Of a stretch of 64,000 bases of DNA, positions 1 to 63,315 are shown piece by piece (the stretch's first letter is position 1; every line of letters starts with the position of its first letter). This DNA is from Candidatus Saccharimonadota bacterium (GTDB taxonomy: Bacteria > Patescibacteriota > Saccharimonadia > Saccharimonadales > Saccharimonadaceae): assembly GCA_017519305.1 (NCBI GenBank), contig JAFWSN010000001.1, positions 120,296 through 184,295 of the forward strand, given 5' to 3'. Below the pieces are notes generated by a model. It made no database searches. It was not told the DNA's origin and saw nothing but the letters and a program-made list of their open reading frames with translations. The position numbers were made by a program, and so were the translations under genes.

Positions 1-834
1 ATGGATGTTCCGGTTTATGCTGCTGGCGGCGTTATTTTAACCTCGGCTGGGGAAATTCACGGCATCACTAACGGTATAGAAGTACGCTCCGGTGAACTCA
101 ACATTACTGGCGGTTCCATCACGGTTGATGCCGAAACCAAATATGATGTCGGCCCTAAACCAACCAACGGTTCTTCGATCTTGGGCGCTGCCATCGTCGT
201 CTCTCAGCACACTACGAAAATGCCAATCACCATCAATATTTCCGGCGGCACTTTTACTGCTGATAAAGCATTTGTAGAGGCTAACGTGATTAATAACCCA
301 GATGCATCTATATCTCTGGTTACTGGTGTAGTTACTGGTGGTACTTTTATCTCTACTGATAATACAGGAGGAGCCGAAGCTATTTTGAGCGAGCACTGGA
401 CAGGGTTTATTTCTGGTGGCACCTATTCGGTTAAACCAAAAGATGAATATATTGCTCCGGGCTACGAACTCAAGCAGCGTTCAGAATCCCTTTGGGAAGT
501 AATTCCGGAAGGCTCCGAGGACCAAGTGCCGGTCGACGATGACACTAATCCGGCCGTCCCAGACACTGGTTTTGGTGCCGAAATTGAGCGTTTTAAATCC
601 GCCAAAGACGGCCATTCTGGCAACTTCATTATTATCTTAAGTTTAGTGGCATTTTATCTTGTCTTTATCTATAAACTGTGGTATAATTACCTAGATATTA
701 ACAATAAGGGAAAATATGAGTCGTATCGGAAAACAACCCATCGAGATTCCGGCGGGAGTGACAATCACGGTCGGCGACAAAGAAATTACTGTCGCAGGAC
801 CAAAGGGTTCACTCGTCGTCCCGGTTCAGCCTAA
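1..834 (+). CDS. C-terminal part of a surface protein with a VPDTG sortase-like motif and TM segment (5' truncated by the window edge)
   Basis: Gly/Thr-rich beta-solenoid-like sequence, acidic linker, VPDTG at 556-570, hydrophobic helix FIIILSLVAFYLVFIY, then a basic tail. The frame runs 119 bp into rplF. Confidence 0.7.
   Translation: MDVPVYAAGGVILTSAGEIHGITNGIEVRSGELNITGGSITVDAETKYDVGPKPTNGSSILGAAIVVSQHTTKMPITINISGGTFTADKAFVEANVINNPDASISLVTGVVTGGTFISTDNTGGAEAILSEHWTGFISGGTYSVKPKDEYIAPGYELKQRSESLWEVIPEGSEDQVPVDDDTNPAVPDTGFGAEIERFKSAKDGHSGNFIIILSLVAFYLVFIYKLWYNYLDINNKGKYESYRKTTHRDSGGSDNHGRRQRNYCRRTKGFTRRPGSA
659..687 (+). promoter_or_regulatory. Sigma70-type promoter for rplF-rplR-rpsE-rplO
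   Basis: TTGTCT (659-664), 17-nt spacer, TG-G-TATAAT (-10 at 682-687). Confidence 0.65.
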
Positions 835-26883: not shown

Positions 26884-29329
26884 TTAAAAATCACAAATAG
26901 ATTATTTTTAGAGACATCTTCTATAATGCGTAAATACATATTATAGTGCAATGGTTTTATAAACTGTTTCTTTTAGTCTCTAAAAATAACTATTTTGTGA
27001 TTTTTTGTTGCAAAGCACAATTTGTTTATGCTAAAATAAAAGCATGAAGGGAATGTGTTGGACTGCGCAGAAAAAGCGTGGCATAGGTAGTGTCATAAAC
27101 CATGCTCTGGTATTGCTTGGTGTTTCGTTCCTGACGTTTTCATTGATTACTCTTAATACAGTTAGCGCCGCAACCGGACCGTTTAAAATTACTGACGCCA
27201 GTATTGCTGCTAAGTCGACCGACGTTGATGCTACTATTGTCAGCTTCGAAGACGCCGAAATAAACTCTTAAGCCACTTTCCATCGGCTGAACGACAGCGT
27301 TACTTATTTAGTTACGATTAGTAATATTGGCGACAAATCTTATACTATCAATTCTATTACAGACAATAATACCAACACGCATCTTACCTACAACTATTCT
27401 ACTCACGCGGGCGAAGAAATTGCTGCTGGCAGCGACCTAGCTTTAGAAGTAGAGATTGTTTATACTGATGTCGTTGCAGAAATCACTGATCGCGTTCAAA
27501 ACTTAGATATTGAATTTATTATCGACTATGAAGAGGAAGACGATATAGTGGTCCCGGACACTGGCGACGATGATGCCGTTGTACCAGATACTGGCGTCGG
27601 GACTAATGATGCTAGGTCTAAAGCCGATTTAATTCTTCCAACTACTACGGCTATTGGTATTATTCTCTTGGCGATTGGTTTATTTAGGAGCAAACTAAGT
27701 AACAAGACTAAAGTCGCTGCTCTTATCTTTGTTGGCACCCTTGCTGGAGTTTCAACAGCGCACGCCGTAAGCCGTAGCTTTGCTTTCGAATTTTGTGCCG
27801 ATGCCAATCTTAAGAACATTCTTGCCATTGTTATTGAGGGGCAAGATGGCTACACGGTAATCTCTTACGGCGACACTTTGGCGCTCGACGACCCGACCGC
27901 CAGTACCGGATACAAATTCTCTGGGTGGAAAGATGAAGTGGGGAACGACTTTGATCCAGCCGCGCCAATTGCCGACGACGCTACGATTCATCCAACTTTC
28001 TCGCCAATCCAGTATACTATAGCCGTAGATACGGATGGCGATGGGGCCGCAGATACTAACTTGGACGCTGTTTACGATACTTTTATAAGGCTTCCACAAA
28101 ATACCGCTAAAACCGGCTACGATCCGGGTGGCTGGACTGACGGCTACAATAATTATCTTAGTGGCGGCAGGGTTGTAAACCTTACTGCCGTGGACGGTGA
28201 TACGATTCAGCTTTCACCAGTCTATATTCCACATCAAATTGTGATTTCTTTCTCCCGTGGTGAAGGAGTCACCGATGCATCTGGTACGGTACAGGATAAG
28301 CAATTGGCTTATAATCAATCCGTTACTATGCCGAGCCGCGAAAATGGAGGTATTTTCTCTAGACCTGGCTACACTCAGACTGGATGGGAATGCGACGTGG
28401 CACCAGGCACAATATTCAGCCCAGGCGAGATCATTGTTAACTGGAATTATGATACTCCACGAGTAACTTGTAGTGCAGTTTGGACAGGGAATCAATATAC
28501 GATTCATTTTGTGAAAGGCGCCGACGACGCCACCGGTAGTATGGACGATATATCTTCTATTAGCTACGGAGATGATACTCCGCTACCGCTAAATACTTTT
28601 GCTCGTGAAGGATATCGTTTTACGGGTTGGAAATGGGGAAACTCTGGCGACTTGATTGAGGATGGTTCGAGTGCTGGGCAATTTGCTACTACGCAGGGGG
28701 CTACGGTGTCTCTTTGGGCACAATGGGAAGTGCTTCCTTATGCTATGCTAGATACCGGGTTAAATTTTAATAAAAAAATAAAAAAGATAGTTCACGGAGA
28801 GAATATTCCTGATGACTTTTTTGACTGGAATATTTTTGCTATTGAAATGGCCGATGCCTTGCCAGCAGATTTTGATACGGAAGATACAGCAAACATCATC
28901 TCTGCCCCAGATTCACCAATTAAGGTTTATGCTTGGTATGATAATGACGCTATCGATGTGACTGGCGATGAAATAAAAGATGGTGCAATATTTGTTTATT
29001 CCGATGCTAGTACCATTAAAGGTAATCCAGATATGAGTTATATGTTTTCGGGGACAGGAGATCTTTTCTCCGTATCTTTCCTAGAATATGTTGACACTTC
29101 CAGTACAACCGATATGAGCTATATGTTCTATTATACGGATCTCATTCCTCTCTCTATCCCCGCTATTAATACTGCAAATGTAACTAATATGTCTTATATG
29201 TTCGCCGATTCAAATGCAGTATATGAACCTCTTGTCCTTCCAGACTCCTTTGATACTTCAAATGTGACCGACATGTCTTACATGTTTTGGAACGTTCACA
29301 ATTCTGTATCGTTAACTCTTCCGGACACT

Positions 29330-29590
29330 TTTGACACCTCAAACGTAACGACCATGGCGCACATGTTTGAAGGTCTGGAGGTTGAAGAAGTTACTCTTCC
29401 GGACTCTTTCAATACTTCCAATGTAACCGATATGGAATCTATGTTCAGTGGCTTGCATGCCACCTCCTTTACCCTTCCAAGATCCTTTGACACCTCAAAC
29501 GTAACGACCATGGCGCACATGTTTGAAGGTCTGGAGGTTGAAGAAGTTACTCTTCCGGACTCTTTCAATACTTCCAATGTAACCGATATG
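29330..29590 (+). repeat. Exact 105-bp direct repeat (29330-29434 = 29486-29590)
   Basis: Identical sequence at 156-nt spacing (two 26-aa LRR units). Confidence 0.9.
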
Positions 29591-29626
29591 AGTTATATGT
29601 TCGGCGGCTCAACCAGTCTTGTTTCT

Positions 29627-30130
29627 CTCACTCTCCCAGATTCCTTCAACACCTCCAACGTAACAAATATGGGCGGTATGTTCTCCGGTATGTCCTCCCT
29701 CACTACTCTCACTCTCCCAGATTCCTTCAACACCTCCAGCGTAACAAGTATGGATAGTATGTTCTGCGACATGACCTCCCTCACCACCCTCACCCTCCCA
29801 GATTCCTTCAACACCTCCAGCGTAACAAGTATGAGCGGTATGTTCTCTAACACGAGAGCCCTCACTACTCTCACTCTCCCAGATTCATTCAACACCTCCA
29901 GCGTAACAAATATGAACAGTATGTTCTCTAACATGTCCTCCCTCACTACTCTCACTCTCCCAGACTCATTCAACACCTCCAACGTAACAAGTATGGGCTA
30001 TATGTTCTCCGGTATGTCCAAGCTCACTACTCTCACCCTCCCAGATTCCTTCAACACCTCCAGCGTAACAAGTATGAACAGTATGTTCTATAACATGAAA
30101 GCCCTCACTACTCTCACCCTCCCAGATTCC
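29627..30130 (+). repeat. 81-bp (27-aa) tandem repeat, 6 full copies plus a partial copy
   Basis: Unit CTCACYCTCCCAGAYTCMTTCAACACCTCC..., starts at 29627, 29708 and onward every 81 nt. Confidence 0.92.
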
Positions 30131-30326
30131 TTTATTATTGGAAGTGATACAACGACAAGCTACATTTTTACCAGTATCCGAACCACCGCCACCCTCTATG
30201 CTACAAATGCCACTGTGCGTTCGCTCTGGCCGGGCATACTAGGGAATTAGTGGCCTTGCAACAAATTGCAAATAGTGGTAGAATAGTTTAAATTATCTAT
30301 TTATAACAACATTAAGGAGCATTTAA

Positions 30327-48824: not shown

Positions 48825-48901
48825 TGGTGGGGATATCAGGACTTGAACCTGAGACCTCGTCATTATCAGTGACGCGCTCTAACCAGCTGAGCTATATCCC
48901 C
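48825..48901 (-). tRNA. tRNA-Ile(GAU)
   Basis: Cloverleaf GGGGATAT...CCCCACCA; anticodon arm CGTCA-CTGATAA-TGACG. Confidence 0.96.
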
Positions 48902-48905
48902 AGAT

Positions 48906-48982
48906 TGGTGGAGTAACAGGGATTCAAACCCTGGACCTCTGCCTTGCAAAGGCAGCGCTCTAATCAGCTGAGCTATTACCCC
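48906..48982 (-). tRNA. tRNA-Ala(UGC)
   Basis: GGGGTAA/TTACTCC acceptor with G3:U70; CTGCC-TTTGCAA-GGCAG; CCA encoded. Confidence 0.95.
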
Positions 48983-49087: not shown

Positions 49088-50518
49088 ATGCATTTCAAGA
49101 CTATTTTCAAATCTCTCAAGAATAAAGACATGCTTCGCCGTGTTTTCATTATTCTTGGTATCCTAGTGGCCTATCGTCTGCTTGCCCACATTCCAGTACC
49201 GATGGGAAACGCATCAACTTTCCAGGAAGCTGTCGCTAACCTGCTCAATAAATCCGACTTCTCGAGCTTCCTTAACCTTATCTCTGGTGGTGGTCTTGCC
49301 TCATTCAGTATTATCTTAGTCGGTCTTTCACCATACATTACCGGCTCAATCATTATTCAGCTTCTCACCAAAGCGATTCCGTCTCTCGAAGAGCTTTCGC
49401 AAGATGGTGAAACTGGTCGTCGCAAGATCAACCAGTGGACCCGCATGCTCACTATTCCTCTAGCAATTGTTCAATCTATCGCTTATATCTTTATCCTTTA
49501 TCAATCTACCGTCGCAAACGGCGTTGGTACTTTTGAGCCAACCATGGGCGACTGGATTCTCTCTGTTACCGCTATGACCGCCGGTTCCGTCATCTTGATG
49601 TGGCTTGGTGAGCTCATTACCGAACAGGGCATCGGCAACGGTATTTCTATGATTATCTTCGCCTCTATTATTTCTCAGCTTCCAACCACGCTTGCTAGCC
49701 TCGGTGGCGCTTTGCTCGACACGACAAACGGCTCGCTTAGCCTCTTCGGTTGGTTTGAGCTCCCAGTTAACCCGACTATCTTCTGGATCACGCTCGGCTT
49801 CGCTATTGCTATGCTGGTAGTAATATTCTTCTTAGTCAAGCTCAACGAGGCTCAGAGGGTAATTACAATCAACTACGCTAAGCGTGTTCACGGTAACACT
49901 AGCTACGGCGGCATCAAATCAATCTTACCAATCAAGCTCATCGCCGCTGGCGTTATTCCAGTCATCTTCGCTACGGCTTTCTTGTCATTGCCAGCCCTTA
50001 TTGGCCAGGTAATTACATCGGTCAATCCAGAAAATACCCTCGGTACGACCTTAACAACACTCTTTACGGCGCCATCCGCCAGCAATTTCAGCACCATGTA
50101 TCCAGACGGTATCACTGCACAATGGTTCCTCTACCCAGCAATCTACTTCGTCCTAGTTATCATGTTCACCTATTTCTACACGTCAATCATCTTTAATACC
50201 AACGAGATTGCCGACAACCTCCAAAAACAAGGTGGCTTCATTGAGGGTGTTCGCCCAGGCATCACCACGGCCAAATATCTCGGCAAAGTTGTTAATCGCC
50301 TCAATCTCTTTGGTGCATTAGCTCTTGGCCTCATCGCTATGTTGCCATTCATTACAGACTATATCTTCATCGTTTTAATTGGCTATCCAATTGGTCTCTC
50401 TATCTCTGGTACTGGTCTTCTTATCGTGGTCACCGTCGCTCTTGAAAACCTCCGCTCTCTGGATTCCCGCGCGCTAATGGTAACATACGACGACTTCAGC
50501 AATGAATCTCAAGACTAG
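49088..50518 (+). CDS. secY: Preprotein translocase subunit SecY
   Basis: GLSPYITGSIIIQLL, GETGRRKINQWTR, GIGNGIS, AGVIPVIFA, GGFIEGVRPG. Confidence 0.98.
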   Translation: MHFKTIFKSLKNKDMLRRVFIILGILVAYRLLAHIPVPMGNASTFQEAVANLLNKSDFSSFLNLISGGGLASFSIILVGLSPYITGSIIIQLLTKAIPSLEELSQDGETGRRKINQWTRMLTIPLAIVQSIAYIFILYQSTVANGVGTFEPTMGDWILSVTAMTAGSVILMWLGELITEQGIGNGISMIIFASIISQLPTTLASLGGALLDTTNGSLSLFGWFELPVNPTIFWITLGFAIAMLVVIFFLVKLNEAQRVITINYAKRVHGNTSYGGIKSILPIKLIAAGVIPVIFATAFLSLPALIGQVITSVNPENTLGTTLTTLFTAPSASNFSTMYPDGITAQWFLYPAIYFVLVIMFTYFYTSIIFNTNEIADNLQKQGGFIEGVRPGITTAKYLGKVVNRLNLFGALALGLIAMLPFITDYIFIVLIGYPIGLSISGTGLLIVVTVALENLRSLDSRALMVTYDDFSNESQD

Positions 50519-51188
50519 GCACTGGGGGCGAATTGCATTAATCGTAGCTGGCGTACTCGTCGCCGGATTAATCTTGACATTCTTCCTTCGCGTCATGCTT
50601 TGGGAAAAAGATTACTACGAGCAGAAAAAAGGCTCCGAGCGAGCCCTTCCGGAACATGTCGAGATTGAGGGCGTCGTAGACGAAACCCCAATCACCGAAG
50701 AACAGATCGTAGAATACACGGTGGCCCCAGGAAGCCCACGCTATCTTACTATTGGCAAAATTGACGTCAGCCAGGCTAGAATTATCCAGGTAGGCACGCT
50801 TAAAAACGGCGAAATGGGCACACCAAACAATATTTTTGACGCCGGCTGGTATAACCAGACTAATCGCCCGGGCGAAGGTGGCAAAATCATTATTGATGGA
50901 CACAATGGTGGTCCAACCAAATCAGGTATCTTTAAGAGGCTCCCAGAGCTCGAAAATGGCGACATCGTCTCAATTGAACGTGGCGATGGTATGAAATTCG
51001 ACTACCGTGTTGTCGAGAGCGTTAGCCGCGAAGTAAAAACCGGCGCAGCTAGTACTGAGATGCTTAAAGCCTTTCAAACACCAAATGTCGAGACCGTCGT
51101 TTTGATCACTTGTACTGGCGAATGGCTCGAGAACGAGAGCACTTATAGTCAACGCCAATTCGTCTACGCCGAGCTGGTTACCGAATAG
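50502..51188 (+). CDS. Sortase (class F-like)
   Basis: N-terminal membrane anchor; AGWY, IIIDGH (His), LITC (Cys), SQR (Arg); 17-bp overlap with secY. Confidence 0.85.
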   Translation: MNLKTRHWGRIALIVAGVLVAGLILTFFLRVMLWEKDYYEQKKGSERALPEHVEIEGVVDETPITEEQIVEYTVAPGSPRYLTIGKIDVSQARIIQVGTLKNGEMGTPNNIFDAGWYNQTNRPGEGGKIIIDGHNGGPTKSGIFKRLPELENGDIVSIERGDGMKFDYRVVESVSREVKTGAASTEMLKAFQTPNVETVVLITCTGEWLENESTYSQRQFVYAELVTE

Positions 51189-51264
51189 GCCAAAAATCAT
51201 CAAAAAATCTCTTAAAAAGTCATTTACAAATAGTCCATTTTGTGCTACAATGAGCGAGTAATTT

Positions 51265-51489
51265 ATGGCTAGTCAAAAAGAAGTGATTAAACTCACGGGT
51301 AAAGTCGTTGAGTCTTTGCCTAATACCCAATTTCGGGTTGAACTCGAGAATGGCCATATTATTGTTGCTCATATGAGCGGACGTATGCGTAAGAATTACA
51401 TCCGTCTCGTGCCGGGCGACAGAGTCGAGGTTGAGTTAACCCCTTACGATCTTACAAAGGGCAGAATCAGCTTTCGTCTCAAAGATTAA
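51265..51489 (+). CDS. infA: Translation initiation factor IF-1
   Basis: [36 protein letters not shown]. Confidence 0.98.
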
Positions 51490-51634: not shown

Positions 51635-51751
51635 ATGAAAGTACGTGCTAGTGTTAAAAAAATCTCCCCTGATGACATCATTGTCCGCCGCAAAGGTGTA
51701 CTTCGTGTTATCAACAAGAAAAAACCTAAAAATAAGCAAAGGCAGGGTTAA
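51635..51751 (+). CDS. rpmJ: 50S ribosomal protein L36 (Cys-free form)
   Basis: Translated by hand as [38 protein letters not shown]; absent from the ORF track. Confidence 0.95.
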
Positions 51752-51756
51752 AATAT

Positions 51757-52143
51757 ATGGCTAGAATTGCTAGCGTCGTTATTCCTTCCGACAAACAGGT
51801 CTGGATTGCATTGACCTATGTTTACGGAATCGGCAGAACGACATCTAAAGCCATCCTTGCGGAGGCTAAAATCGAGCCTACCACTCGGGTGAAAGATCTC
51901 ACCGAGGCTGAAGAACAGAAAATCAACGACATTATTTCCGCGAAATATCATGTTGAAGGTGATCTACGTCGTCTCGTGAGCAATAATATTAAACGCTTGA
52001 AGGATATCAACTCTTATAAAGGTATCCGCCACAAGGCTAAATTACCAGTCAACGGCCAACGTACTCGTACGAATGCACGTACACGTAAGGGTAAGGCGAT
52101 CGCGGTCGGTGGTGCACAACCAAAAGCAGCAAGTAAAACTTAG
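51757..52143 (+). CDS. rpsM: 30S ribosomal protein S13
   Basis: [34 protein letters not shown]. Confidence 0.98.
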
Positions 52144-60879: not shown

Positions 60880-63315
60880 GTGGGAAAAATTAAGGTTTTT
60901 CTGGCTGCGTTAGCGCTTTGCGCGGTGCCAGTAATTCTATATTCTACCGCTTCAGCAGCGGGGAACTTTGGACTAGAAAATATTACGGTGCTTGATAAAG
61001 CTACTGACGTTGTTGCGGAAACGCCAACTGTTTCCGGCAATACCGCAACCTCCACGATCATTTTCCACCAACTAGACGACTATGTCGTGTACAATTTAAG
61101 CCTAAAAAACTCCACTTCTACTTCTTTTCAAATCCTAGACATCACGGACGACAACGCTAGTGAATTGGTAGAATACTCATACGATAACCACGCAGACGAG
61201 GTGGTCGAATCCGGTGAGGCGCTCAATCTCGAAGTCACTATTACCTACGTGCAGGAGCACCTAGACGACAGTGATCGTACTATCGACAACAATGTTAAAT
61301 TCACAGTTTCCTACCTAGACTTACTGACCGGCGAGGTCGAAGAAGACGAAGTGGTCTTAGTGCCGAATACCGGTGCGAGCACATTTCTGGGCGGGATTTT
61401 TAGTAGTGCCTCCAACGCTATCGTCTTGGCTGCCCTAATTTTGGCTGGCATTGCGTTTGTTGTCGCACTTATTTATAAAAAGAAACGTGCCGTGTTGGTC
61501 TTGGCTTTTGCGATCATGTCTGTTGTTGCTGGCTTCTCTTACATGAATGCTGTAGCTGAAGAGGCTGAAGATATGGACATAACGTTTAGTAGTGAAATCA
61601 GATTGAGAGACTATGTCTATGGCGAAGTCTATTATAAGGACTCTTATACTGGCGAGGACGCCTATATGGATCCTGAAGAATTTGGCGGCCCTATGCCTTA
61701 TACTGAATGTTTGGAAAATGAATATTGGTATTGTCGCTACTTTGGTGATATTTTTGACCCTGAATGGTGGGATGCTCCACAGGGCTTGATGATTACTGGT
61801 TTTCAATTTACTGGCACCAATACGGAAGTTGACCCAGAGGCACTTATTTTGGATGATTTTAGTGTGACTATTATCTATGGTGAGCCAACATTTAACATTA
61901 CTTATGATTATGAAGGCGGTACGGTGGCAGAAGCTAATCCTGCTTCCGTTAAGGCTTCTGATGAACCGTTTACTTTGCATGCACCGACTAAAGATGGGGT
62001 ATTATTCGGCTGTTGGCAAGAGTCTGGTATGCCGGCGGGTCAGTGTCAGAGTGAAATAACTATCAACCCAAGTGAATTAACCAGAGATTTGCATTATAAA
62101 GCTATTTATGAGTTTGAAGCTGTAATTTATGACCAATATGGGAACGAGCTCGAGCGTGGTAGAGCGATTGACGGCGTTGGGCTTGGTTCAGGTTATTATT
62201 ATTCCGTTGTATTTATGAACGTGTCTGGGTATAAAGTTAATAGTGGTTCTTGCACTAACGGTCAGCGCCTAAGATATATGGGTAGCAGTACCGCTCCTTA
62301 TCCTTCATATGAGGTAGATAGTATTTCTGCAAGTACCGTTTGTACGCTTAATATTGTAACCGTCCCAATGGAAGTTAGTTTGAATGTCATTGGTGGAACT
62401 GGCTCTGGAACGCTCAATGTGGCGCTTGGTGAAGATGCAATTTTTGAGAATATAACAGCAAATGCAGGTTACATGTTGGCAGACAGTGTAAGTTGTACTA
62501 ACGATCAGACTGCTGCAATTTCCGGGAACAAAGTGGTTGTCAGTAATGTTACTAAAAATACTCAATGTACTGTCAGGAACACTCAGCTTTCATTTTACAC
62601 TATGACCGAAATGCAACAGATGACTCCTGAAATGTGCGCGTCGGCCACCACGCCGAATGTGGGAGCAACTCAGTTTGATGCCACTGGGAATTATAAAAAC
62701 AACAAAAACTATATTCCGCGCAGAACCCTCGTCGATACACGTGATAACAAAACTTATCAAGTTTCTAAGCTTGCCGATGGCAAATGTTGGATGACTCAGA
62801 ACCTAGCTATAGGAAACGCCGAAGCTACAATGACGCTCACTCCAGAAGACTCTGATGTCCTCGGTGCCTTTACGTTGCCAAAAAGCGATATAACTGTTTT
62901 TGCGGGCACCGTAGATATTAGCGCTGTTTATGTTGATGATACATTTGGCGGGTACTATTCTTCGAGGACTGCTAATGCGGACTCTGTGCAGGCTGGGGAT
63001 GCATCGATTTGTCCGAAAGGCTGGACGTTGCCAACTATCACGAATACCTCTGGTGATTGGACGAATTTGATTAATAAATATAATTACTCTAGCGTTCGCT
63101 CGCTTTACAATGAACCAATTAATCTCACTCATAGCTATTATGTTAAAAATGGTGCGATTTATCGCAATAATGTGTTTGATACATATTATATTGGTCCTAC
63201 AGTGAATAGCGCGTATTCATTTAGTAGCTTGGGTGTTACCATAAACGATAACTGGACGGGTACTTCTAGAATTGAAAGTGGCGAAGGCGGAAACGTCCGC
63301 TGTATTGCGAGATAA
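60880..63315 (+). CDS. Surface protein with internal VPNTG motif, InlB-B-like repeats and C-terminal FISUMP (Fib_succ_major) domain
   Basis: Signal peptide; VPNTG 61360-61374; TM-KKKR-hydrophobic-AVA; DTRDNKTY, GKCWMTQNL, SICPKGWTLP, NVRCI. Confidence 0.82.
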   Translation: MGKIKVFLAALALCAVPVILYSTASAAGNFGLENITVLDKATDVVAETPTVSGNTATSTIIFHQLDDYVVYNLSLKNSTSTSFQILDITDDNASELVEYSYDNHADEVVESGEALNLEVTITYVQEHLDDSDRTIDNNVKFTVSYLDLLTGEVEEDEVVLVPNTGASTFLGGIFSSASNAIVLAALILAGIAFVVALIYKKKRAVLVLAFAIMSVVAGFSYMNAVAEEAEDMDITFSSEIRLRDYVYGEVYYKDSYTGEDAYMDPEEFGGPMPYTECLENEYWYCRYFGDIFDPEWWDAPQGLMITGFQFTGTNTEVDPEALILDDFSVTIIYGEPTFNITYDYEGGTVAEANPASVKASDEPFTLHAPTKDGVLFGCWQESGMPAGQCQSEITINPSELTRDLHYKAIYEFEAVIYDQYGNELERGRAIDGVGLGSGYYYSVVFMNVSGYKVNSGSCTNGQRLRYMGSSTAPYPSYEVDSISASTVCTLNIVTVPMEVSLNVIGGTGSGTLNVALGEDAIFENITANAGYMLADSVSCTNDQTAAISGNKVVVSNVTKNTQCTVRNTQLSFYTMTEMQQMTPEMCASATTPNVGATQFDATGNYKNNKNYIPRRTLVDTRDNKTYQVSKLADGKCWMTQNLAIGNAEATMTLTPEDSDVLGAFTLPKSDITVFAGTVDISAVYVDDTFGGYYSSRTANADSVQAGDASICPKGWTLPTITNTSGDWTNLINKYNYSSVRSLYNEPINLTHSYYVKNGAIYRNNVFDTYYIGPTVNSAYSFSSLGVTINDNWTGTSRIESGEGGNVRCIAR

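Follow-up and report, generated by a model that had tools for sequence, protein, structure and literature searches.

A class-F-like sortase gene adjoining secY in two sister genera of Saccharibacteria and its putative xP[D/N]TG surface proteins

SrtF of Cutibacterium (Propionibacterium) acnes stands as the sole characterized example of a class F sortase (Girolamo et al. 2019, as cited in PMC8225981). Two sorting pentapeptides that recur below are known from streptococci, where VPDTG is the signal of RrgC from pilus islet 1 and VPETG that of the PI-2 pilins, both of them LPXTG-like (PMC5640630, PMC3178606). Coupling of export and sorting in space has been described for S. pyogenes, where the Sec translocon co-localizes with sortase A in the "ExPortal," and for group B Streptococcus, where SecA and SrtA are septal; the picture is disputed between species (PMC3676364). 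Here, we analyze a class-F-like sortase gene located between secY and infA in a 786-kb Saccharibacteria genome (G000; 11 contigs, 45% G+C). The locus is part of a 64,000-nt stretch of contig JAFWSN010000001.1, called the window, and window coordinates are positions in that stretch. The canonical spc/alpha gene order is rplO-secY-adk-map-infA-rpmJ-rpsM; G000 keeps secY, infA, and the genes beyond it (rpmJ-rpsM-rpsK-rpsD-rpoA-rplQ) in order and differs in that rplO lies 46 kb from secY. We consider it likely that a class-F-like sortase moved into the secY-infA spacer, is co-expressed with secY, and serves about 11 surface proteins. The adjacency to secY is best read as a matter of co-expression, not as the mark of a special machine.

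The product of the open reading frame (ORF) downstream of secY is a genuine class-F-like sortase and is probably active. Residues 83-226 match the full Pfam Sortase model (PF04203) at 66 bits, the cut-off being 26.6. Class F (NF033748) is the best-scoring NCBIfam sortase class at 85.2 bits, which is below its curated cut-off of 166; class E reaches 39 bits, and orthologues carry the NCBI name "class F sortase." The triad residues His134, Cys204, and Arg218 are invariant in alignments of 30 genome-derived and 28 protein-database orthologues. A search of Protein Data Bank (PDB) sequences with the sortase returned one weak match, 4d70 (E = 0.01). An AF2 model (pLDDT 84) predicts an N-terminal helix at approximately residues 8-43 and an extracellular beta-rich barrel at approximately residues 75-226, so that the modeled protein has the eight-stranded beta-barrel and N-terminal membrane anchor of a sortase. 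With this model as a Foldseek query against the PDB, the top 50 matches were all sortases (probability 1.00), the best of them class C enzymes, in a ranking that was flat across the classes at about 20% identity throughout. The preliminary description of this DNA, made from the sequence, had already placed a sortase with aligned His, Cys, and Arg residues between secY and infA, starting 17 nt inside secY; these points are borne out by the Pfam match and the invariant triad, and classification by profile models, which it had proposed as a check, confirms a sortase whose best class is F, albeit below the cut-off.

The enzyme resembles class F in its best-scoring model, in being a single membrane-anchored enzyme, in its His-Cys-Arg triad, and in the LPXTG-like P-x-T-G signal of its putative substrates. 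It differs in its model score (85 versus 166 bits), in the V, A, or T at position 1 of the signal in place of L, in the 10- to 22-aa spacer of the signal, and in its location in a ribosomal-protein/secY operon. Next to the membrane, residues 35-47 form a segment W-E-x2-Y-Y-x2-K-E-G-S-E-R (window 50604-50645), in which E35, Y38, Y39, G44, S45, and R47 are invariant across the genus. Orthologues of other families lack this segment, as does the sortase of the sister genus g18, although the latter is secY-linked.

Orthologues in other families of Saccharibacteria (loci L025, L027, L031, L032, L117, and L122, and genome G027) belong to the same subfamily at 25-40% identity and share the triad and the P-[D/N]-T-G core of the signal. 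Unlike the secY-linked sortase, they sit directly behind a substrate gene, and some have long N-terminal extensions (336-364 aa). In several other lineages, the gene directly upstream of the class-F-like orthologue ends in VPNTG, APDTG, LPNTG, FPNTG, or PPNTG followed by spacer, helix, and basic tail, and in G027 a distance of 250 nt separates the class-F-like sortase gene from an LPNTG gene. A protein query showed the class-F-like type to be missing from about a third of families.

The signals that we attribute to this enzyme consist of a pentapeptide, a spacer of 10-22 aa, a membrane helix, and a tail of basic residues; the spacer sets them apart from textbook LPXTG signals. A count was made over the whole G000 genome in six-frame ORFs with a minimum length of 60 aa. 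Scoring a charge-free hydrophobic stretch plus basic residues within 35 residues, 10 of 17 VPxTG motifs were followed by helix and basic residues, versus 3 of 74 other xPxTG motifs (Fisher p = 7e-7); against the 2.5% background rate of helix plus basic tail, the VPxTG excess had a binomial p = 2e-12. The genome-wide enrichment that the preliminary description had suggested looking for is therefore present. A signal profile built from 22 xPxTG-type signals (A2) gave 11 matches in G000, four each in its relatives G004 and G011, three in G027, and two in G171.

Position 1 of the pentapeptide varies. It is V, A, or T in the genus (APDTG, APNTG, TPNTG, and VPNTG in G004; VPNTG, VPDTG, APDTG, and TPNTG in G011) and L, F, P, A, or V in other lineages (LPNTG, FPNTG, PPNTG, APDTG, and VPNTG in other families). 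G000 itself has one LPKTG protein, a homolog of the LPNTG protein of G027. Since relatives place A, T, L, F, or P at position 1, valine is not the key residue, and comparison of the signals points to P-[D/N]-T-G as the conserved core. Of the earlier proposal that the recognition motif is VPxTG rather than LPxTG, the enrichment of VPxTG thus stands, and the exclusiveness does not: position 1 is variable, one putative substrate carries LPKTG, and VPDTG and VPETG had been described before. When two signals in isolation and two full-length substrates were compared with the NCBIfam LPXTG-anchor models, none matched at E <= 0.1, and routine annotation would for this reason miss these signals. The pattern x-P-[D/N/E]-T-G plus 10- to 22-aa spacer, helix, and basic tail provides a usable rule for finding such surface proteins. 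A simpler count of VP[DENK]TG as a DNA pattern was noisy (103 versus 41 for the control in the genus, 34 versus 47 in other families); a match that recurred in this count, GTGCCCGAGAC, was rejected as not being a sorting signal.

About 11 genes of G000 carry a sorting signal of this layout, two of the entries being contig-end fragments. The signal lies at the extreme C-terminus in eight genes and at approximately residues 100-170 in three paralogues (window 27044-30250, window 60880-63315, and C10:192318-194981), in which a second signal-peptide-like helix follows. Signal-peptide-like hydrophobic N-termini are visible wherever the N-terminus is present. The putative substrates are large, heterogeneous, and adhesin-like, with DUF285, BspA-type leucine-rich repeat (LRR_5), Flg_new (Listeria-Bacteroides repeat), and FISUMP domains; in the paralogue at 27044-30250, DUF285, LRR_5, and Flg_new lie downstream of a tandem VPDTG cassette. 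The three VPDTG and one VPNTG motifs that had been reported for the window are all in place, each with spacer, helix, and basic residues (Table 1). Saccharibacteria live attached to host bacteria, and wall-anchored surface proteins are likely attachment tools.

Some of these genes show irregularities of their own. In the VPDTG protein whose gene ends at 834, the membrane helix is followed by about 50 further residues, an unusual tail that runs 119 nt into rplF (716-1252); the original stop codon may have been lost. The gene at 27044-30250, which encodes a signal peptide, contains an in-frame TAA (27269-27271, codon 76) ahead of the VPDTG cassette, and both of its paralogues are intact; a pseudogene, an error in the sequence, or a restart downstream may each account for the TAA. 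A near-identical VPETG signal lies at three contig boundaries of G000 (the end of C2 and the starts of C5 and C8), which suggests that a repeated surface-protein gene family broke the assembly there.

Conservation of the gene order was found at the level of the genus. A sortase match was obtained in 21 genomes of the genus, and in every one of them the sortase is directly behind secY and, where the locus extends far enough, infA and usually rpsM are behind the sortase. Two subgroups differ upstream, one with the ancestral arrangement rplF-rpsE-rplO-secY-sortase and the other, which includes G000, with rpoC-secY-sortase. Since both subgroups carry the secY-sortase pair, it outlived a break directly upstream of secY. 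The order rplO-secY-sortase was also found in the same-genus genome G078, in which the contig ends before infA, and in G050 from the sister genus g18, in which infA follows. In the third genus of the family, g19 (G149 and G171), an unrelated 186-aa ORF follows secY, and class-F-like sortases are encoded elsewhere. Elsewhere in the order, 16 families were compared, and secY leads straight into infA in 12 of 14 readable genomes; the two exceptions have a 300-aa ORF (G025) and an antisense 323-aa ORF (G031) between the two genes. In a phylum sample of 150 genomes, a sortase beside secY occurred, among the matches listed, only in G000, G078, and G050, and 26 sampled genomes with a second, sortase-like match had no Pfam-detected sortase within 25 kb of secY. 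This survey covers genomes whose sortases are close enough to be found by the query and gives at least the matches listed, not an exhaustive set. Within this scope, the linkage is confined to two sister genera of one family and represents a new gene order that marks these genera. A synteny survey around secY had been put forward as a test of the linkage; it held for the two genera and did not extend to the third genus of the family, to 18 other families of the order, or to the remaining phylum matches listed.

The rpoC gene stands directly before secY in the sister species G004, G007, and G011, and other genus members keep rplO-secY. The occupants of the secY-infA spacer differ by lineage (loci L115, L116, L034, and L043), the 186-aa ORF of g19 being fast-evolving and the 300-aa ORF of G025 acidic. 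The spacer thus seems to tolerate insertions and looks like a hot spot for them. In several families of Patescibacteria (f26 and others), the open frame of secY spans 550-680 aa, compared with the usual 425-445 aa; the longer frames may represent C-terminal extensions or fusions.

The sortase had been described as standing in place of adk and map. Of the 14 readable genomes from other families, 12 have neither gene in the secY-infA interval, nor do the two further genera of the family, and G000 keeps adk and map as adjacent genes beside ftsA/ftsZ on contig C2 (52.9-54.2 kb). The idea of a replacement was therefore abandoned. Because the secY-infA gap of the order normally lacks adk and map, the sortase was inserted into a short spacer and did not substitute for them.

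The junction with secY is tight in the linked genomes that gave a reliable measurement. Eleven genomes of the genus, G000 among them, share a conserved sortase start, M-[S/N]-L-K, that lies within the secY 3' end; the overlap is 11-20 nt in 10 of them, and the secY stop was unplaceable in the eleventh (L008). In two genus genomes the stop and start codons abut, and in the remaining ones a gap of 12-18 nt contains a Shine-Dalgarno (SD)-like sequence, so that the junction ranges from -20 to +18 nt among the genus genomes with a reliable measurement. For G050 and G078, open frames of 711 and 764 aa had raised the prospect of a SecY-sortase fusion, which was discarded because the DNA shows a secY stop in both; the sortase starts 21 nt past it in G050 and 15 nt past it in G078. 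The overlapping subgroup lacks an SD motif ahead of the sortase; in G000, the sequence upstream of the sortase ATG, ACGACGACTTCAGCA, has none, and nearby ribosomal-protein genes carry AAGGAG. The G000 pair thus has the structure of a coupled gene pair, with an overlap and a downstream gene lacking its own ribosome-binding site. From the tight junction and the absent SD motif, co-transcription of secY and the sortase gene appears very likely throughout the linked genomes, and translational coupling by termination-reinitiation appears plausible in the overlapping subgroup. The secY linkage is therefore a candidate case of translational coupling; by itself, it does not constitute a new mechanism.

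The class-F-like subfamily is common in Saccharibacteria, and a place immediately after a substrate gene would be its older position. From there, the gene would have been relocated into the secY-infA spacer in the ancestor shared by the two sister genera, and it would now be transcribed together with secY. Ribosomes finishing secY might then translate the overlapping sortase start, which would give a constitutive sortase level tied to that of secY. Outside the membrane, the enzyme would act on the approximately 11 Sec-exported proteins with [V/A/T/L]-P-[D/N/E]-T-G signals, presumably cutting between T and G and joining the protein to peptidoglycan; co-transcription, translational coupling, cleavage site, and wall attachment are all inferred. 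In short, two Saccharibacteria genera from gut and rumen have a sortase that probably hitchhikes on the transcript of secY, and its synthesis may be tied to that of SecY.

G000 encodes a second sortase (C10:376823-377950), a protein of about 400 aa with a cytoplasmic N-terminal domain of about 190 aa and class C/E-like scores, which scores 72 bits with TIGR01076, above the cut-off. Each of the 14 genomes tested from the order carries this type, including two that have no xP[D/N]TG signals, and this distribution suggests that the second sortase is the true core ("housekeeping") enzyme. That designation had been given to the secY-linked sortase and is better withdrawn from it, considering that the class-F-like type is lacking in so many families. 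It is conceivable, but improbable, that the second sortase processes the VPxTG proteins and that the secY-linked enzyme has another substrate. The higher score of the second sortase with the general model and its universal presence, as expected of a housekeeping enzyme, favor this idea; however, G031 and G035 carry only the second type and have no signal match, and it is the class-F-like type that has substrate genes as neighbors, upstream in several lineages and downstream on the opposite strand in one. Because of this adjacency and of the absence of signals from G031 and G035, we assign the xP[D/N]TG proteins to the secY-linked enzyme, and they can now be attributed to one of two sortases. 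The universal second sortase would accordingly have substrates of its own. A role of the secY-linked enzyme in polymerizing pili instead of anchoring proteins to the wall seems very improbable to us, even though its substrates share the pentapeptide variants VPDTG and VPETG with the streptococcal RrgC and PI-2 pilins and class C enzymes are its best structural matches. In streptococci, these signals belong to minor pilins handled by class C/A sortases, whereas in G000 they form the majority signal of the surface proteome; a YPKN-like pilin motif is absent from all 11 candidate substrates, which are large, heterogeneous, adhesin-like proteins, and the flat Foldseek ranking at about 20% identity takes weight from the class C matches.

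The preliminary description went further and proposed an export-and-anchor unit. In a dedicated physical or mechanistic unit of this kind, synthesis from a single mRNA with overlapping frames would place the sortase anchor at the translocon so that substrates are captured as they emerge. We regard this as unlikely. The tight and conserved linkage, which withstood an operon break just upstream of secY, is in its favor, as are the juxtamembrane segment of the secY-linked genus, missing from unlinked orthologues, and the SecA/sortase A microdomain proposed in S. pyogenes and disputed for other streptococci (PMC3676364). The ExPortal shares with this proposal the idea of spatially coupled export and sorting, yet it is a matter of protein localization, and the genes secY and srtA are not linked there. 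Moreover, the secY-sortase linkage occurs in two genera only, orthologues from 10 or more further lineages manage without such linkage, the spacer took up unrelated genes elsewhere (g19, G025, and G031), and the juxtamembrane segment is missing from the sortase of g18, which is secY-linked as well. It is tempting to speculate, and little more than that, that the sortase docks at SecYEG, with its anchor inserted beside newly made SecY, W-E-x2-YY-x2-KEGSER acting as the contact, and substrates linked to the wall at the channel exit. If true, this ultra-small epibiont would have secretion and sorting hard-wired into one minimal complex.

Several observations weigh against our preferred reading of a relocated, co-expressed sortase serving the xP[D/N]TG proteins. 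Its class F score is about half of the cut-off, and on this measure substrate specificity should not be transferred from the single characterized class F enzyme. Profile A2 found no signal in five of the six genomes without a sortase-query match, but small sortases are present in three of these "lacking" genomes (G029, G033, and G038), and sortase fragments at contig ends in a further one (G037); the absence contrast therefore rests mainly on G031 and G035. Conversely, G050, which is 99% complete and has the secY-linked sortase and two others, gave no profile A2 match; its substrates may use another motif or sit in unassembled repeats. Of the three putative substrates in the window, only the first has its signal near the C-terminus; in the other two the signal lies at approximately residues 100 and 165 and is followed by 600-850 more residues, so that the outcome of cleavage differs. 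The sortase tree has a basal polytomy with the G000 sortase on a long branch, and with its base unresolved, a single relocation event is unproven. Finally, a promoter-like site just before infA, if used, would make the sortase the last cistron of the secY transcript; yet such sites were no more frequent in the infA upstream region than in shuffled sequence in the consensus scan, no terminator was predicted, and the two observations appear to say little either way.

Table 1. Positions in the window of the sortase gene, its flanking genes, and the putative sorting signals
Feature	Position	Strand	Description
secY	49088-50518	+	476 aa, Sec translocon channel; Pfam SecY 312 bits, TIGR00967 343 bits
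secY stop codon TAG	50516-50518	+	
Class-F-like sortase ORF	50502-51188	+	228 aa; Pfam Sortase 66 bits
secY/sortase overlap, 17 nt	50502-50518	+	Sortase start on the last secY codons and stop; read from the sequence
Codon of catalytic His134	50901-50903	+	Motif DGHNGG; aligns to His of PDB 4d70
Codon of catalytic Cys204	51111-51113	+	Motif LITCTG (TLxTC-like); aligns to Cys of PDB 4d70
Codon of Arg218, third triad member	51153-51155	+	
Promoter-like site TTTACA-17-TACAAT, upstream TG	51223-51251	+	Just before infA; consensus scan only
infA	51265-51489	+	TIGR00008 115 bits
rpmJ	51635-51751	+	From the ORF list
rpsM	51757-52143	+	From the ORF list
Sorting signal of the first window gene	547-690	+	VPDTG 556-570, 19-aa spacer, helix, basic residues; A2 E = 4e-12
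Tandem VPDTG..VPDTG signal	27551-27706	+	VPDTG 27551-27565 and 27581-27595; helix, basic residues, second signal-peptide-like helix; A2 E = 3e-11
VPNTG signal	61354-61488	+	VPNTG 61360-61374; helix and KKKR, residues 161-200 of an 811-aa protein; second signal-peptide-like helix; A2 E = 2e-13

By sortase sequence, the closest named relative of G000 is a Saccharibacteria metagenome-assembled genome from sheep ileum, the one locus returned by a related-locus search, which serves as a hint of habitat. The sortase ORF ends 76 nt before infA. The promoter-like site ends 13 nt before the infA ATG, and infA has no SD motif; its mRNA may be nearly leaderless, judging from this arrangement. The rpmJ product, L36, contains no cysteines and represents the zinc-free form (51635-51751).

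Upstream, the ribosomal-protein operon is split, with rplF-rplR-rpsE-rplO (716-2674) ending 46 kb before the start of secY. Because the usual rplO-secY link is broken, secY is here the first gene of its transcription unit, and the tRNA genes upstream of it are divergent. The DNA between the end of rplO and secY contains rpoC, a BspA-LRR gene, an unknown gene of 263 aa, and a pair of tRNA genes. The latter, tRNA-Ile(GAU) and tRNA-Ala(UGC) (48825-48982, minus strand), stand isolated just upstream of secY as a pair that is typical of rRNA spacers.

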